This document shows positions 6,523 through 30,237 of a stretch of DNA of 37,720 nucleotides, in pieces. The number at the start of each line of letters is the position of its first letter. The first letter of the stretch is position 1. Below the pieces are notes generated by a model. That model was not told the DNA's origin. It ran no database searches and was given only the letters and a program-made list of their open reading frames with translations. This DNA comes from a virus (lineage: Duplodnaviria > Heunggongvirae > Uroviricota > Caudoviricetes), in the IMG/VR virus record IMGVR_UViG_3300012943_000001, positions 167,743 to 205,462 of that record. The stretch is one strand, 5' to 3'. The translations under genes and the position numbers were made by a program.

Positions 6523-7128
6523 ATGCTTACAAGATATTTCGGCCCCACTCCCTACTCAGTTTTCGGCTCTCTAGGCGGCACACGAGATGACAAGTACGTT
6601 ATTTTTGGCGTTGACAATAAACTTTACGCCTATCATCTTGTAGGTGGAAGTATTAAGTGCCTTACTCATTGGAAAGAGGCGGAAGTCGCAAAGACGCTCA
6701 AAAACCAACTCTGGCACCAATTCACTGTAGCTGAGTTGGAAACGTTTATTCCCGGACAAATTGTAGGTGTAGAAATTGCGGGCGTCAAGTCGTTCTTCGA
6801 AAGCTCGCCGAACGCGAAATTTTTAATTGACAAGCCTACCGTCGATGGTCAAGGCTTCATCAAAGTCAAATCCAAACAAAAAACTAAAATGGCAGTCATC
6901 GGTCAACAACCAGTATCCCAAAACGTCGTGGACACAACTCCACGCACAGTCACCAGAGGTCAGCTCTACTATAATCTCGCAGAGAAGCAGGTTCAGCGTA
7001 TCATCGAAATCCAAGGTCACCTTTATTGGGCGTCCTATCACAAACAAGCAGCAAAGCCATACGGCATCAAATCTTTCCGCAAGGCAACAAAGGCTGAGGT
7101 AGATTCCTATCTCGCTAACGCCAACTAA
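6523..7128 (+). CDS. Hypothetical protein
   Basis: ORF with ATG 34 nt from TTGACT(6489). Confidence 0.7.
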   Translation: MLTRYFGPTPYSVFGSLGGTRDDKYVIFGVDNKLYAYHLVGGSIKCLTHWKEAEVAKTLKNQLWHQFTVAELETFIPGQIVGVEIAGVKSFFESSPNAKFLIDKPTVDGQGFIKVKSKQKTKMAVIGQQPVSQNVVDTTPRTVTRGQLYYNLAEKQVQRIIEIQGHLYWASYHKQAAKPYGIKSFRKATKAEVDSYLANAN

Positions 7129-7426
7129 TTTTCAAAAGCACGTCTACGCTGCCATAGGTAGGGAAGTCTCTGTTCGGTTAAGTCCGGCCCTGAGTCCTAT
7201 GGTAGAGGAAGTTCGCCGCTTCTTAACACGCCGCAGGCAGACCTAGTAACTGGGAAACCAGCAGAACAGTCGTTATGACCTCATGGAAGAAGCAACCCTA
7301 AAGTTCCTAGAGTGAGTGTTACTCGACAATGGTAAGGTTGGGGCAGTTTGCTATTAACACGCAACCAGACGCAAGTCTGAGACAAATGTAGACCTAATAC
7401 AGAACGGCGGCTATTACTTTTGAAAA
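7129..7426 (+). ncRNA. rnpB: RNase P RNA (reduced specificity domain)
   Basis: P1 TTTTCAAAAG/CTTTTGAAAA; P2 GTCTAC/GTAGAC; P3 CTGCCATAGG/CCTATGGTAG; CR-I GAGGAAGTTCGCC; P4 AGT(T)CGCC/GGCGGCT with bulged U; P5 GCTTCTT/AAGAAGC; L15 GGTA; CR-IV AGACAAATG; CR-V ATACAGAAC..GGCTA. Confidence 0.85.
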
Positions 7427-7806
7427 CTCAACTCTCCCGAGTGTATGCCCCTGTGGCAATTTGCACAGAGGAGAGTTGTTTTATCTAGCTCTTTCTTGAT
7501 ACGTTCGAACGAATGATTTTTCGCCATAGCGATAGCAATCGAATTTTCCTTGACTTCTGGGTCAAGATGGTGAAACTCTAAAGCAGATAGAAATTTATTG
7601 AATCCGCAGCACTGGCAAGCTCCACCTTTATAAGCGACCGCTTTTACTTTCATTTCCCTACGTTTCTTCTGAAGTCGCTCACGTCGATTATTCAGTACGG
7701 ACGCTCCGCAATAGTAAGCTATCGTTCCACGATTAACTCCCGTCTTTTTCTCAATCTCTCTGTAACTTAAACCCTCTGACCTAAGCTTCAATAGTATGTC
7801 TTTCAT
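7414..7806 (-). CDS. HNH endonuclease with N-terminal HTH
   Basis: GLSYREIEKKTGVNRGTIAYY HTH; GGACQCCGF, LEFHHLDP, LLCANCHRGIH; ATG at 7806. Confidence 0.9.
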   Translation of the reverse strand: MKDILLKLRSEGLSYREIEKKTGVNRGTIAYYCGASVLNNRRERLQKKRREMKVKAVAYKGGACQCCGFNKFLSALEFHHLDPEVKENSIAIAMAKNHSFERIKKELDKTTLLCANCHRGIHSGELSFQK

Positions 7807-7833
7807 ACTTTGATTTACACAGGTTGGACTTTT

Positions 7834-8100
7834 ATGGGAACACAACCATACAACCTCGCAGAAAATAAAAGAGTGGCGAACGCGGCAGTTCTTGCGTTCC
7901 TCCAAGCGAATCCTTCATGGGTTTTCGCAGGCTATGTATTAGTCGATACTGATACAGCTAACATGCGAATCTTTGCGGATGGTAAAGAGCGTATGCTTAT
8001 TACGCCCGAGCGTAATGAGTTGATGGACCCGAAGCTTCCATGCTTCCAAGTCAATATGGACAATCTCAGGAAACAGATGGAGCAGAGCGGACACGACTAA
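7834..8100 (+). CDS. Hypothetical protein
   Basis: ORF track 7810..8100; ATG 7834 preferred. Confidence 0.6.
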   Translation: MGTQPYNLAENKRVANAAVLAFLQANPSWVFAGYVLVDTDTANMRIFADGKERMLITPERNELMDPKLPCFQVNMDNLRKQMEQSGHD

Positions 8101-8405
8101 TGATATACTCTAGAAGAAAAACAATCGCTCGAATCATTTACTTGCTGAATAGTCCGACTTTTCTATTCATGTCTCAAGGCTTCGCGTTTCGAGGAAAAAG
8201 ACTTCGAATCCGCTATGTAAATCGCAAGGCGAGCCACACAGAGTTGAATAAGCTTGACACCACGACTCTTCGCCTTCTTCATGACTGCATGATTATAACT
8301 GAGTCCATAGCTCCTAATCTCAAAAGAACTTTAGGCAACAACGTCTCAAAAAGAGGATACGAATGGAACGTCCCATTTACTCCTCGCAACCGCTTTTCAA
8401 AGTGA
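8100..8405 (+). CDS. Hypothetical protein
   Basis: TAATG coupling to the upstream gene. Confidence 0.55.
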   Translation: MIYSRRKTIARIIYLLNSPTFLFMSQGFAFRGKRLRIRYVNRKASHTELNKLDTTTLRLLHDCMIITESIAPNLKRTLGNNVSKRGYEWNVPFTPRNRFSK

Positions 8406-9205
8406 GTAACATTCTTTCAGGTAAATCTATCGAACTCCTCTGTGAATTTCACGGAGGCTCGCATCTTTACGGGCTCAATACGCCTGCCAGCGACATCGAC
8501 GTTCGAGGCGTGTACGCAAATACGGACTACACGTCCATCCTTGGTACGAAACGCTTTGACGAAGAGCGTAGGCAAACGGCGAGCATCCAAGAGGATATCG
8601 TCTACAAAGAGGTGAGTCACTTTATCCGTCTTCTTAAACAGTCGAATACGGAGGCGTTGGAAATTCTTTTTGCGTCTGAGTCTGCGTTCTCTATACTCTC
8701 CGACTCCATGAAGTTGATTCGTTCCTACCACGAGTCTCTTGTCGATTCTGAGCGTCTATACAAATGCCTTTGCGGATATATGCAGGGCGAGTATCGTCTT
8801 GCTATTGGAGAACGTAAAGGCCAGATTGGCGGCAAACGCTACGAGTCTGTACAGAAGTACGGGTTTAGTCCGAAAAACTTTACGCAGCTCTTCCGCCTCG
8901 CCTATGCAGGCCAGATGTTCTTTGAGCAAAATCGCTTCCCAGTTAACATTAAAGAAGAAAAAGACCCTGACATTTGGAACGCTTTGATGAATATCAAAAC
9001 GAAGCCAGAACTCTTCACGAAAGACGAGCTTACGCTTAAATATGCTGAGGCTGAGTTGGCCCTTGAACAGGCTTACGAAAACCGCGTCGTAGAGCGTAAG
9101 TTTGATGAAGACAAAGCGAATGAGCTTCTATTTGATGTCTATATGCCGCACCTCGTCAATGGCTATCAGGAAGCGTTGTCGAAGCGAATTAAGAGTCGCG
9201 AATGA
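8402..9205 (+). CDS. Pol-beta superfamily nucleotidyltransferase (RlaP / RNA-repair-associated type)
   Basis: GGSHLYGLNTPASDIDVRGVY, NTEALEILF, YGFSPKNFTQLFRL; GTG 8402 coupled to the upstream stop. Confidence 0.8.
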   Translation: MSNILSGKSIELLCEFHGGSHLYGLNTPASDIDVRGVYANTDYTSILGTKRFDEERRQTASIQEDIVYKEVSHFIRLLKQSNTEALEILFASESAFSILSDSMKLIRSYHESLVDSERLYKCLCGYMQGEYRLAIGERKGQIGGKRYESVQKYGFSPKNFTQLFRLAYAGQMFFEQNRFPVNIKEEKDPDIWNALMNIKTKPELFTKDELTLKYAEAELALEQAYENRVVERKFDEDKANELLFDVYMPHLVNGYQEALSKRIKSRE

Positions 9206-10055: not shown

Positions 10056-10168
10056 GGGGAAGTAGCTCAGAGGTGGCGAGACGCAAGTCTTGTAGACTAG
10101 AGTCAAATCTAGGTAGAGCGAGCGATAACTTCGCTAGGTCGGTGGTTCGAATCCATCCTTCCCCACCA
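10056..10168 (+). tRNA. Non-canonical tRNA with expanded D-loop and 5-nt anticodon loop
   Basis: Acceptor GGGGAAG/CTTCCCC-A-CCA, D-stem GCTC/GAGC enclosing two extra hairpins, arm AGCGA-TAACT-TCGCT, T-arm GGTGG-TTCGAAT-CCATC. Confidence 0.8.
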
Positions 10169-10174
10169 ATTTAT

Positions 10175-10246
10175 GCCGCGTCGTCTAAGCACTAGGACGC
10201 CACCTTACCCGGTGGAAATGCAGATTCGTAACCTGCTGCGGCACCA
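10175..10246 (+). tRNA. Degenerate tRNA with 6-nt anticodon loop
   Basis: GCCGCG/TGCGGC-A-CCA, D-stem GTCT/GGAC, arm CCACC-TTACCC-GGTGG, T-loop TTCGTAA. Confidence 0.65.
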
Positions 10247-10249
10247 ATT

Positions 10250-10804: not shown

Positions 10805-11032
10805 GTGGTCTTCCACTTCAATAAGTTTAGCATAGTCGATACTACGGTCCCGCCGTGGGTCATTAAAGCAAAGGGTCAAACCTTCTATGTTAAACATGTT
10901 GAATGTTGTGCCGCTTGGTCAACAAAGGAAACACCAGACAACCCTCATACAAAGGGTAGCCTCAAGTTCAAAAACGTAGACCTCCGTATAGAAGATGAGG
11001 TCGCATACATCACGCAAGCCACCCCACCATGA
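10805..11032 (+). CDS. Hypothetical phage protein (possible upstream extension to ATG 10775 through TAG)
   Basis: ORF track; FHFNK...STKETPDNPHTKGSLKFK. Confidence 0.7.
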   Translation: MVFHFNKFSIVDTTVPPWVIKAKGQTFYVKHVECCAAWSTKETPDNPHTKGSLKFKNVDLRIEDEVAYITQATPP

Positions 11033-11250
11033 TTTTCTTTTTGACAGTTATCTATGTCCTAGCTAGTCTAGGAATTGCTTTTTTGCTTGTAGACCTGCAT
11101 TTTTTTCTCGCCGACCCTAGCTCGGCTAAGGTGGTATGGACACTTATCCTGTTCTTTCTTTTTTGGCCGCTTATCTTTGTGTGGTTTGGGCTTATTGTCA
11201 TCAAAGATTTGCTGGCAGAGTTCTTTAACAATCTCAAAAGTAAATCTTGA
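11029..11250 (+). CDS. Small membrane protein
   Basis: Two hydrophobic stretches; ATGA coupling. Confidence 0.65.
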   Translation: MIFFLTVIYVLASLGIAFLLVDLHFFLADPSSAKVVWTLILFFLFWPLIFVWFGLIVIKDLLAEFFNNLKSKS

Positions 11251-11283
11251 CTTTCCATTCGTGGCGTATCAATCTCGCCTCAT

Positions 11284-11359
11284 GCTTGGGTAGCTCAATG
11301 GCAGAGCAGGCGTCTCTAAAACGCGTCGGTTGTGGGTTCGACTCCCACCCCTTGCACCA
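11284..11359 (+). tRNA. Amber suppressor tRNA (anticodon CTA)
   Basis: Acceptor GCTTGGG/CCCTTGC (two U-U), D-arm GCTC/GAGC, arm GGCGT-CTCTAAA-ACGCG, T-loop TTCGACT, A73, CCA; own promoter TTGACT(11247)-N17-CAATCT. Confidence 0.88.
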
Positions 11360-11450
11360 CTTAGGTTCGACATTTTCTTACCGTTTTGGCCGTAACCTTA
11401 ATACGGGGCGATAAACGGAACAGGTTGGAGCGTTCCAGTAAATACGCTCT

Positions 11451-11465
11451 TGTTCTTTAACATTT
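11451..11465 (+). promoter_or_regulatory. boxA-like motif preceded by a boxB-like hairpin
   Basis: TGTTCTTTAACATTT (E. coli rrn boxA is TGCTCTTTAACA), directly after hairpin GAGCGT...ACGCTC. Confidence 0.65.
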
Positions 11466-11590
11466 GGGCGGACTTAGCGGTTCGCCTTCCCTACTCTGGT
11501 ATCAGCAATGGTGTCGGGCTCACAGAGAGTAATCACAGCCTTCCCGAAGGTCGTAACGCTCGGGTGGACTATGAAGTAGGGAGAATTTAT

Positions 11591-11723
11591 TGGAGAGTAT
11601 GGGGTAACGTCATCCCCACCCGCGTGGGAGCGGGAGAAGGTAATACTACTAGCGTTATGGGTCTAATTAACCTACCCGCAGGAATAACTTTAGCTGTAGG
11701 TTTAAGTCCTACCTCTCTGACCA
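11591..11723 (+). tRNA. tRNA-Pro(GGG)-like RNA with 6-nt anticodon loop and 61-nt variable region
   Basis: Acceptor TGGAGAG/CTCTCTG-A-CCA; D-arm TGGGG/CCCCA; arm CCCGC-GTGGGA-GCGGG; T-arm GTAGG-TTTAAGT-CCTAC. Confidence 0.65.
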
Positions 11724-11859
11724 TTTTAGGCTCCGCGAAATGCATCTAGTGGAGCCTGTCTGTTGTAGTATGCCGGGGTAATCTGTATAGTTCCCGCTTA
11801 GTCGCACGTCATTGCAGAAGACCATTGCGAGCCGCAGACGAATTTCTTTTATTACGTAC

Positions 11860-11928
11860 AGGTATGTAGTCTAATGGTAAAACACGAGGCTATTTCCGAG
11901 TATCTTGGTTCGAATCCAAGCGTACCAG
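11860..11928 (+). pseudogene. tRNA-like element lacking a proper anticodon arm
   Basis: GGTATG/CGTACC, D-loop AATGGTAA, intact T-arm CTTGG-TTCGAAT-CCAAG; no 5-bp anticodon stem. Confidence 0.55.
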
Positions 11929-11939
11929 TGCGTAAGTTT

Positions 11940-12030
11940 ATAAAGAGGGCTCAGACCAACTGAGTTGTAAGCTCGAATCAGTAAAACGGACATGAGCAGG
12001 TTCGTTCTGGACGCAAGTCCGCCTCTTTAT
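11940..12030 (+). ncRNA. Small structured RNA candidate
   Basis: Closing helix ATAAAGAGG/CCTCTTTAT; hairpins CTCAG/CTGAG and GGAC-GCAA-GTCC. Confidence 0.45.
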
Positions 12031-12518: not shown

Positions 12519-12896
12519 TTATTTTTCTAAGAAGTGTATTTCTCTATGGCAATTAGAGCACACGAGGATACATTTCTTTATCTCTTTGAGACCTTTATTC
12601 AAGCTATCAAAGAATGGAGTAGGGTCTTTTTCTTCAGGGTTTACATGATGAAAGTCTAAAGAGGCAACGCATTTATCATACCCACACTTCACGCACTTTC
12701 CTCCAGCCGCTTTAACGAGTTCTCTTTTGATACTGTTACGGCGAGCTTGTCTAGTCTCGTTCTTTTTAAGTCTATATTTCTCTTCCCTGTGGTATAGAAC
12801 AGTGCTCATAGATACGTTGAGAGCGTCGCTTATTTGTCTATTTGTTTTACCGTCGTTTATAAGTGTGGTAATCTTTTCTTTTATAGTTGACTCCAT
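12519..12896 (-). CDS. HNH endonuclease with N-terminal HTH
   Basis: GKTNRQISDALNVSMSTVLYH HTH; GGKCVKCGY, LDFHHVNP, LVCSNCHREIH. Confidence 0.9.
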   Translation of the reverse strand: MESTIKEKITTLINDGKTNRQISDALNVSMSTVLYHREEKYRLKKNETRQARRNSIKRELVKAAGGKCVKCGYDKCVASLDFHHVNPEEKDPTPFFDSLNKGLKEIKKCILVCSNCHREIHFLEK

Positions 12897-28971: not shown

Positions 28972-29007
28972 ATTGACTTTTTGCAAACGAGTGAACTCTT
29001 TCGTAAT

Positions 29008-30237
29008 ATGAACATCATAGACACAATCGAAGCTGGCGTAGAGGTATGTGAGAAACTTCAAGAAGCGGGTCACCAAGCAGTATTTGCAGGTGGTTGTGTA
29101 CGCGATTTTCTATTGGGTGTAGAACCCACGGACATCGACATTGCTACGAGTGCGACGCCAGACCAAGTTGAAGCCCTCTTTCCCAAGACTGTAGCTGTGG
29201 GCAAAAGTTTTGGTGTCATCCGCGTAATACATGACGAGGAGGAGTTCGAAGTGGCTACCTTCCGCAAAGATTCCAAAGAGGGTGACGGTCGCAGACCTGA
29301 CTCTGTAGAATTTTCCTCAATGGAGGAAGATGCCAAGCGTCGTGACCTTACGATTAACGCAATCTTTTTCGACCCAATCAGTGACAAGTTCCATGACTTT
29401 GTAAATGGTCAGCGGGACTTGCATCACAAAATTATCTGCATGGTGGGTGACCCTGCCGAACGTATCAAAGAAGATAAGCTGAGAATCCTTCGTGTGATTA
29501 GGTTTGCTGCCCGGTACAAGGGTGCAGTCATCGAATCAGAGACGGGTCAAGCCGTACTTGAACATGCGAAAGAAGTTCTCGAAGTCTCCCATGAACGCAT
29601 TGGAGATGAATTGACGAAAATTCTCACGCATAAGAGTGCGGCTGTGGGCCTAGTCCACCTAAAGAACTACGGTTTGGATTTTCTGGTGCAGCCAAGTACG
29701 CTAATGGGCCGCAATCATATCCGTAACGCTATCGAAGTGTTTACGTTCGCATCGAAGCATACGGCTGGTAATAAATCGCTGGCGTGGGCCGCAGCTCTCC
29801 ACGAGTACGGCTACGACGCAATCGTACAACACCTCAAGTTCCTTCGCTTCGACACGAAGACGATTGACCGTGTGGTAGGCATCACGGATTTGCTCAAAGG
29901 CTTCCCCGGATTCAAAACGCTCCCTGTATCTAGCAGAACGAAAATGCTAGCGACGGAGTATTTTGATGACACATTCCGTCTTTTCTCCTGCCTGCCTAAT
30001 ACGAAAGAAAGCCTCTGTGATTTTATCCTTCACTTTCAGGCTTCAACGCCTCTTTCGCAGGTAAAACCAGAGCGTCTTGTAAATGGTAATGACCTGATTG
30101 CTATGGGAATGAAGCCCGGTAAGAAATTCAAGGAAATCCTTGAAGTCATTGATACCCAGCAGCGTGAGGGTATTGTTACCTCGCGTGACGAAGCTATGGA
30201 AATCGCCAAAGCAATGGTGGCGAAAATTTCTGCATAA
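29008..30237 (+). CDS. cca: CCA-adding tRNA nucleotidyltransferase (class II)
   Basis: GGCVRDFLLG..DIDIAT, EVATFR, DGRRP flexible loop, RRDLTINA, EDKLRILRVIRFAAR, VNGNDL..GMKPG; ATG 35 nt from TTGACT(28973). Confidence 0.88.
   Translation: MNIIDTIEAGVEVCEKLQEAGHQAVFAGGCVRDFLLGVEPTDIDIATSATPDQVEALFPKTVAVGKSFGVIRVIHDEEEFEVATFRKDSKEGDGRRPDSVEFSSMEEDAKRRDLTINAIFFDPISDKFHDFVNGQRDLHHKIICMVGDPAERIKEDKLRILRVIRFAARYKGAVIESETGQAVLEHAKEVLEVSHERIGDELTKILTHKSAAVGLVHLKNYGLDFLVQPSTLMGRNHIRNAIEVFTFASKHTAGNKSLAWAAALHEYGYDAIVQHLKFLRFDTKTIDRVVGITDLLKGFPGFKTLPVSSRTKMLATEYFDDTFRLFSCLPNTKESLCDFILHFQASTPLSQVKPERLVNGNDLIAMGMKPGKKFKEILEVIDTQQREGIVTSRDEAMEIAKAMVAKISA

Follow-up and report, generated by a model that had tools for sequence, protein, structure and literature searches.

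A conserved, non-canonical 133-nt tRNA-shaped gene with proline identity bases in the tRNA island of an uncultured soil phage

The stretch of DNA analysed here, which we will refer to as the window, comprises the final 37.7 kb of the 205,462-bp genome of an uncultured soil phage. The genome possesses direct terminal repeats and encodes a terminase, a portal, a DNA polymerase, and ribonucleotide reductases. Across the whole genome, ARAGORN identified 49 tRNA genes (one of them only with introns allowed); every one is on the plus strand, in the interval 156-179 kb. The phage also has genes for a CCA-adding enzyme, an RlaP nucleotidyltransferase, and an RNA ligase (Table 1), and two HNH endonuclease genes are embedded in this RNA island; neither a class IIa synthetase core nor RtcB was found in the phage genome. 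The gene considered here lies in a gene-poor part of the window (~9.6-12.5 kb) that is packed with tRNA and tRNA-like units, between an amber-suppressor tRNA and an odd tRNA-like gene, with one of the HNH genes further downstream.

Table 1. Features of the 133-nt tRNA-like gene, its neighbours, and related genes of the phage (window coordinates unless marked as genome)
Feature	Coordinates	Strand	Remarks
AATTTAT leader	11584-11590	+	gaatttat immediately 5' of 11591; matches the flank consensus of the phage tRNA genes; presumed RNase P leader
Acceptor 5' strand, TGGAGAG	11591-11597	+	Pairs with 11713-11719; probability of pairs 2-7, 0.92-0.99
D-arm-like hairpin, TGGGG/CCCCA with 9-nt loop TAACGTCAT	11600-11618	+	Pair probabilities 0.73-0.97
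Anticodon-position hairpin, 5-bp CCCGC/GCGGG	11619-11634	+	Pair probabilities 0.95-0.96
Variable-region insert, 61 nt	11635-11695	+	Hairpin 11652-11679 between 17-nt and 16-nt linkers (constrained fold)
T-arm, GTAGG-TTTAAGT-CCTAC	11696-11712	+	U54, U55, A58; U56 in place of C56
Acceptor 3' strand CTCTCTG (G72), A73 (11720), encoded CCA (11721-11723)	11713-11723	+
TTTT trailer	11724-11727	+	Matches the (A/T)TTT trailer of the phage tRNA genes
Amber-suppressor tRNA	11284-11359		Upstream neighbour
tRNA-like gene with 6-nt loop CUAUUU	11860-11928		Odd tRNA-like gene; downstream neighbour
tRNA-like gene with 6-nt loop UUACCC	10175-10247
tRNA-like gene with 6-nt loop GUUAAA	genome 160459-160533
Oversized tRNA-shaped gene	10056-10168
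Oversized tRNA-shaped gene, 131 nt	genome 160699-160829		Perfect acceptor GGGGAGT/ACTCCCC; T-arm GGAGG-TTCGAAT-CCTCC; ACCA
HNH endonuclease gene	7414-7905	-	Embedded in RNA island
HNH endonuclease gene	12519-12896	-	Embedded in RNA island; downstream of the tRNA-like gene
RlaP nucleotidyltransferase	8363-9205
CCA-adding enzyme	28981-30237		PolyA_pol family, 130.7 bits
RNA ligase	genome 152092-152598

With its flanks, the gene reads gaatttat/TGGAGAG ... CTCTCTGACCA/tttt. Five of the seven acceptor pairs are Watson-Crick and two are G.U, and the loop of the D-like hairpin holds no GG. The loop at the anticodon position (GUGGGA, 11624-29) is 6 nt long, has a U33-like U as well as GGG, and is closed by a C-G pair. 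Within the insert, GCG/CGC (11652-54/11677-79) and UGGGU/ACCUA form a hairpin with the 7-nt loop CUAAUUA when the acceptor and T-arm are constrained. The T-arm is that of the phage's own tRNA-Gln(UUG) save for C56U. A preliminary description of this locus, made from the sequence, had listed the acceptor with G72, A73, and CCA, the 6-nt loop, the T-loop, and a 61-nt region containing a hairpin, and we found every one of these elements in place, coordinates included. No parent gene is recognisable in the phage genome, and a BLAST search of the gene against that genome returned neither a paralogue nor a repeat of the insert.

The 3' end of the gene belongs to a pattern that is far from random. 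The pattern searched for, a 5-bp stem, a 7-nt loop TTNRANN, 7 nt, one base, and CCA, occurs 47 times on the plus strand of the 205-kb genome and not once on the minus strand; 40 second-order Markov simulations gave 0.05 occurrences per strand, and none when a complementary 5' strand within 60-220 nt was also required. All but two of the 47 modules lie inside the tRNA island, and seven, the present gene among them, were missed by ARAGORN. Among the seven are what looks like a tRNA-His (GTG anticodon, the acceptor preceded by a G; genome 161687-161763) and a tRNA-Asn (GTT; genome 159382-159458), and once these two are added the phage tRNAs cover all 20 amino acids. Standard tRNA finders, therefore, overlook several real members of this island (7/47 modules, including tRNA-His and tRNA-Asn).

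The flanks match those of the phage's tRNA genes. Upstream of the 48 ARAGORN tRNA genes used for comparison, T occupies position -3 in 41, A position -2 in 31, and T position -1 in 39, and in their trailers T is found at +2 in 42 and at +3 in 43; computed from the flank base frequencies, the chance of TTTAT at a fixed place is ~0.001. Nearly all tRNA genes of the island (genome 156400-179465) share a common spacer design, running from CCA through (A/T)TTT and ...ATTTAT to the next 5' end, and the entire spacer is often merely AATTTAT. This shared design is probably a processing signal.

Natural relatives were compared by aligning contigs from four public runs, each belonging to a different study, to window positions 11250-11950; the relatives, named X2, X3, and X4, come from three other studies. 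Only four differences from the window sequence fall within the gene: T11591C (X2 and X4), which converts the U1.G72 pair to C1-G72; a T inserted after 11609 in the D-like loop (X2 and X4); C11617T (X4), which turns a G-C pair of the D-like stem into G.U; and T11647C (X2 and X3), a linker base and the sole variation in the insert. The anticodon-position hairpin is invariant in all relatives compared, and the T-arm is likewise without variation. The changes are few and they keep or improve pairing; the comparators are all very close relatives (at most three changes in 133 nt) and show no real covariation.

The edges of the conserved unit are sharp. A diverged X2 contig spanning 11694-11889 carries 13 substitutions and a 2-nt deletion, all of them within 11724-11859, with zero changes in 11694-11723 and zero where the next tRNA-like gene starts (11860-11889). 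The first change is at 11724, the base after the CCA, and the last is the base preceding the next tRNA-like gene; if the 14 changes fell evenly over the 196 nt, such a pattern would have P ~0.006. On the upstream side, one X2 strain has 144 unrelated bases in place of 11363-11582, with homology returning at 11583, and in another 11360-11461 is deleted. The two X2 strains thus differ in their upstream modules and have ~10% diverged downstream spacers, and the letters through the start of the gene are identical in both; judging by its depth, which is near the sum of the two, the contig covering 11610-11723 would be common to both strains. Because the sequences upstream and downstream vary while the gene is kept in the X2 strains, we regard 11591-11723 as a conserved cassette between variable spacers. 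Two other candidates for the 5' acceptor strand, at 11523 (CAGAGAG) and 11577 (TAGGGAG), were rejected, as both are without the leader motif; in the X2 strains, the one at 11523 either suffers a 2-nt deletion or lies in a module that is replaced.

The same relatives bear on the question of coding. The preliminary description had considered whether ORF 11450-11749 might be a conserved translated gene, which the indels of the relatives argue against, since they give early stops. The frame is open for 99 codons from a TTG start, but it matches neither Pfam nor PHROG families; the 1-nt insertion after 11609 in X4 leads to a stop about a dozen codons on, a 2-nt deletion at 11524 in X2 creates an immediate stop, and three substitutions just past 11723, read by hand in this frame, are all non-synonymous. 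That the region is a protein-coding gene is, accordingly, extremely improbable. The unit at 11591-11723 is a real gene with secure boundaries, and it is non-coding and non-canonical.

Automated tools are of limited help with such a gene. Default ARAGORN is silent, Rfam does not call it at the gathering threshold (RF00005, 29 bits), and an Rfam scan of 2.8 kb at E<=10 gave no match to it; in a 171-nt scan, the Rfam tRNA model aligns with 11.9 bits in another register (11634-11720). When its threshold is lowered to 80%, ARAGORN reports a tRNA-Pro(ggg) with an 'intron' i(38,47) among 112 mostly spurious calls, and when the insert is removed in silico, its output at 95% of threshold is a tRNA, '(gg)', whose loop has 6 nt. 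We rejected the intron reading: the call appears at the 80% threshold only, and taking out the insert leaves the loop short of 7 nt. We know of no splicing machinery in bacteria for so short an insert. A tmRNA was also rejected, as pair 3-70 is G-C instead of G3.U70 and neither ARAGORN nor Rfam made a tmRNA call, and a Y-RNA reading is without support from either program.

Compared with a canonical tRNA, the gene has the 7-bp acceptor, the 5-bp T-stem, the 7-nt T-loop with T54, T55, and A58, the discriminator, and CCA. In other respects it departs from the canon. A 7-nt anticodon loop with U33 and a purine at 37 is absent, GUGGGA having 6 nt and CUAAUUA, the loop within the insert, having U33 but U37. 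The pairing of G18 and G19 with T-loop positions 55/56 (C56) is not available either, as there is no GG and position 56 is U. Natural variable arms reach about 20 nt (4-5 nt in class I tRNAs and up to ~20 nt in class II), and here the region measures 61 nt.

The main bacterial ProRS identity set consists of G72, A73, G35, and G36, with C1-G72 a strong determinant in Escherichia coli (PMC9976931). All four bases are present in the gene, and the pair is C1-G72 in relatives. The proline flavour suggested in the preliminary description is, therefore, borne out: of the 47 modules, only this one and that of one phage tRNA-Pro(UGG) have G72, and A73 and a GGG loop accompany it. The phage has two ordinary tRNA-Pro genes, both UGG, with the loops UUUGGGG and UUUGGAA; GUGGGA equals a tRNA-Pro loop less one nucleotide, be it position 34 or one G of the run. 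The 6-nt loop can accordingly be numbered as GGG with A37, or as a deletion of 34 with G37 and A38, and positions 15/48, which make up the G15-C48 tertiary pair of bacterial tRNA-Pro, are ambiguous given the D-loop and the insert.

The folded shape can be read in two ways. In layout A, 11600-18 is the D-arm, 11619-34 the anticodon arm, and 11652-79 an extra arm; the 5' half is then canonically spaced, with GGG 36-38 nt from the 5' end. In layout B, the part of the anticodon arm falls to the inner hairpin of the insert (11658-74, CUAAUUA with U33), and both 5' hairpins are assigned to an expanded D region; in alignment to class II tRNAs, this layout is favoured by Rfam and by R1, a covariance model built on the single sequence of the gene. 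A normal anticodon loop results in neither, since the loop has 6 nt in A, and U37 and A34 in B. We lean somewhat towards layout A because of the match to proline identity. The anticodon arm proposed in the preliminary description fits layout A, although it is not a unique solution, as the class II alignments choose the hairpin at 11658-11674 instead.

In thermodynamic folding, the D-like and 6-nt-loop hairpins are robust, with probabilities of at least 0.95 for most pairs. The stability of the whole molecule is at shuffle level (z -0.64), as is that of the insert by itself (z about 0). A cloverleaf with an extra arm, in which the acceptor and T-arm are enforced, has -39.2 kcal/mol versus -40.6 kcal/mol for the unconstrained fold, that is, it is 1.4 kcal/mol worse; in the unconstrained fold, GTAGG (11696-11700) pairs with the upstream CCTAC (11671-75) and displaces the T-arm, whose probability is 0.14.

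One may ask whether such a molecule is simply a dead gene, either a decaying tRNA gene or a fusion of a 5' tRNA-Pro half with a class II body, functionless and kept merely through recent divergence. The loop that is one G short fits this, the C56U change and the loss of GG resemble decay, 11634-11720 aligns with both Rfam and R1 as a weak class II-like tRNA of its own, and no distant homologue was found. Conservation argues against a dead gene: the edges at 11591 and 11723 are sharp beside spacers that have diverged by ~10%, leader, trailer, and CCA are intact, and the change from U1.G72 to C1-G72 strengthens the stem. We consider decay or fusion unlikely.

The search for more distant homologues covered several data sets. 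Exact and gapped DNA pattern scans of IMG/VR gave no homologue of the gene, pattern scans of JGI metagenome contigs gave none either (a single match, L022, was an unrelated chance match), and a BLAST search against the INPHARED phages matched only the neighbouring suppressor tRNA. When relatives were sought by way of proteins, a pattern scan with RlaP found none and TerL led to one 6-kb fragment only; most homologues of RlaP have other neighbouring genes. Of the more distant relatives compared, one, termed L012, is syntenic; it has an RlaP 62% identical to that of the phage and shares the gene order tRNA-Leu(UAA), RlaP, tRNA-Cys, suppressor tRNA, with an oversized tRNA-like gene ahead of tRNA-Cys; nothing resembling our gene follows its suppressor tRNA. 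As far as these sequence comparisons reach, the gene appears to be lineage-specific.

Oversized tRNA-like RNAs from the tRNA clusters of phages T4 and T5 have been known for decades without an assigned function, and they are the closest known systems. RNA1 (144 nt) and RNA2 (125 nt) of T5 are annotated in NC_005859.1 as 'tRNA-like stable RNA with unknown functions' and lie in the tRNA region among HNH genes. Their folds resemble that of our gene, with an enlarged middle surrounded by a terminal helix of the acceptor type, a canonical T-arm, and a D-like hairpin; the enlargement in T5 is, however, mainly in the anticodon-arm region, whereas the present gene retains an anticodon-like hairpin and has its extra RNA in the variable region, and the T5 RNAs are without the proline identity set. 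In T4, RNA C (species 1, 139 nt) and RNA D (species 2, 119 nt) are likewise small RNAs from the tRNA cluster; they adjoin the homing endonuclease gene segB and their roles are unknown (PMC3014915, PMC9697503). RNA C has a canonical T-arm, CCGGG-TTCGAAT-CCCGG, near its 3' end, but neither T4 RNA encodes CCA at its annotated 3' end or has proline-type identity. R1 did not match rnaC, rnaD, RNA1, or RNA2 at E<=10, which is a weak test given a single-sequence model. The gene has the features of this group of phage tRNA-like stable RNAs, namely a location in a tRNA cluster, a length within ~105-145 nt, a tRNA-type T-arm and terminal helix, and no normal anticodon arm. By placement and architecture, it would thus belong with the T4 and T5 RNAs, from which proline identity and the shortened loop mark it out.

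Class II tRNAs (Leu, Ser, and Tyr) also possess an extra hairpin between the anticodon arm and the T-arm, and the best non-self matches of R1 were to T4 tRNA-Leu (25.6 bits) and to a tRNA-Tyr of one of the relatives (14.7 bits). Unlike our gene, they carry GG/C56 at the elbow and their anticodon loop has 7 nt; those encoded by the phage total 86-95 nt.

Could the gene nevertheless be an unusual working decoder, that is, a prolyl-tRNA whose 6-nt loop reads CCC/CCU, possibly by doublet decoding or with a shift of frame? The CCA end and the proline identity bases (PMC9976931) are intact, GGG would add an anticodon to a phage whose ordinary tRNA-Pro genes are both UGG, and three more 6-nt-loop genes with U at loop position 2 hint at purposeful design. 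A review of recoding, which discusses loops of 8-10 nt, mentions that anticodon loops of unusual size occur in phage tRNAs (PMC5009743). On the other hand, the absent GG/C56 elbow bases and the floppy 61-nt insert make normal use by the ribosome doubtful, and no frameshift site was identified. Frameshift-suppressor tRNAs are known to have enlarged, not shortened, loops. A suppressor with an expanded anticodon loop (8 nt or more) is excluded by the 6-nt loop. Known tRNA-Pro suppressors of the sufA6/sufB2 type likewise combine a GGG-type anticodon with a loop whose size is changed within the G run, but they have one extra nucleotide and hence an 8-nt loop (PMC5009743), whereas our gene has one fewer plus a large insert. 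The frameshift-promoting role proposed in the preliminary description is unsupported, and a working decoder of any kind seems to us quite unlikely.

Our preferred reading, to which we assign a probability of roughly 0.55, is that of a selectively maintained 133-nt tRNA-shaped RNA gene, likely derived from a tRNA-Pro(GGG)-type gene, that acts as a non-decoding look-alike of tRNA(Pro). Normal decoding is unlikely because the loop is one base short, the elbow is non-canonical, and the insert measures 61 nt. The preliminary description had already spoken of a non-decoding mimic; a tRNA-like gene with proline identity bases is what we observe, and the non-decoding part follows from the defects just named and is still the reading we favour. 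The RNA would be transcribed together with the plus-strand tRNA/ncRNA array of the phage. As its flanks match those of the phage tRNA genes, we infer tRNA-like processing: RNase P would cut behind the common AATTTAT leader, and the U-rich trailer would be trimmed to the encoded CCA.

The look-alike may occupy a factor that recognises tRNA; a host defence nuclease directed at tRNA is the most plausible candidate, and ProRS is a possible one. We rank this role first because of the toolkit of ligase, RlaP, and CCA-adding enzyme and because there are known cases in which phage tRNAs neutralise defences that target tRNA (PMC10264068, PMC11464382, PMC11555353). In jumbo phages, the RNA ligase/RlaP/CCA-adding set has been taken to counteract the anticodon nucleases of the host (PMC7824862), and a decoy RNA could form part of the large outlay of this phage on tRNA supply and repair. 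Among the known cases, T5 tRNA-Lys (against PARIS) and tRNA-Tyr (against retron Eco7) are comparable in that they are phage-encoded, have anticodon loops altered relative to host tRNAs, and come from large tRNA sets (PMC10264068, PMC11464382, PMC11555353); they are, however, functional decoders that have 7-nt loops and take the place of host tRNAs after cleavage, whereas the present RNA probably cannot decode. The gene is experimentally approachable, being conserved, with sharp boundaries, a recognisable proline identity, and a defined loop defect.

In another explanation, the tRNA shape is a mere punctuation element that recruits RNase P and the 3' trimming enzymes and thereby releases an upstream 125-nt RNA (11466-11590) and its neighbours, while the body of the RNA serves no purpose of its own. 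No promoter-like site was found between 11360 and 11860, so that co-transcription is likely, and the leader begins exactly where the strongly structured upstream unit (z -2.98) stops. One X2 strain, however, swaps the upstream unit yet retains the gene, and an acceptor/T-arm half would suffice for punctuation, yet strains whose spacers have diverged by ~10% show no change in the insert, the 6-nt-loop hairpin, or the D-like hairpin. For these reasons we think it improbable that the shape serves processing only.

The preliminary description had also suggested a family design. This was upheld only in a loose sense: other oversized tRNA-shaped genes and other 6-nt-loop genes exist in the phage (Table 1), but their inserts share no sequence. 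Including the present gene, there are four loops that are one base short, the other three each with U at loop position 2. It is conceivable, if rather doubtful, that the phage purposely encodes a short-loop set, whether as uncleavable decoys for anticodon nucleases, as substrates for a new cut-and-refill editing of anticodons by the nearby RlaP and the RNA ligase, or as doublet decoders that cause frame shifts; under the same tentative proposal, the short loop of our gene might have the shape left by a wobble-excising nuclease of the RloC type followed by ligation. The look-alike of tRNA(Pro) described above remains our favoured explanation for the individual gene.

Several further observations were made in the course of the analysis. 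The unit directly 5' of the gene (11466-11590, plus strand, 125 nt, -48.6 kcal/mol) begins right behind a TGTTCTTTAACATTT motif; it is kept in X2, X3, and X4, save for the one X2 strain with the 144-base replacement, and may represent a small RNA in its own right. The 131-nt oversized gene has an AT-rich interior without a recognisable D or anticodon arm and was not called by ARAGORN. Far from the island, two modules composed of T-arm, acceptor, and ACCA end at genome positions 81114 and 82352, the latter resembling an acceptor/T-arm minihelix with a TTTGAAT loop that has U56, as in our gene. An Rfam scan of window positions 7050-7500 at E<=1 matched no family. In the suppressor-type tRNA (11309-11325), the contigs of the relatives show clustered changes on both strands of the anticodon stem (11310-12 and 11321-26), and in one of them the anticodon itself is altered (A11318T); the contigs aligned there probably include paralogous tRNAs. 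Lastly, a 75-codon ORF between tRNA-Cys and the suppressor tRNA (10805-11032, plus strand) has 81% DNA identity to L012:13022-13229, with differences mainly at third codon positions, and probably encodes a real conserved small protein.
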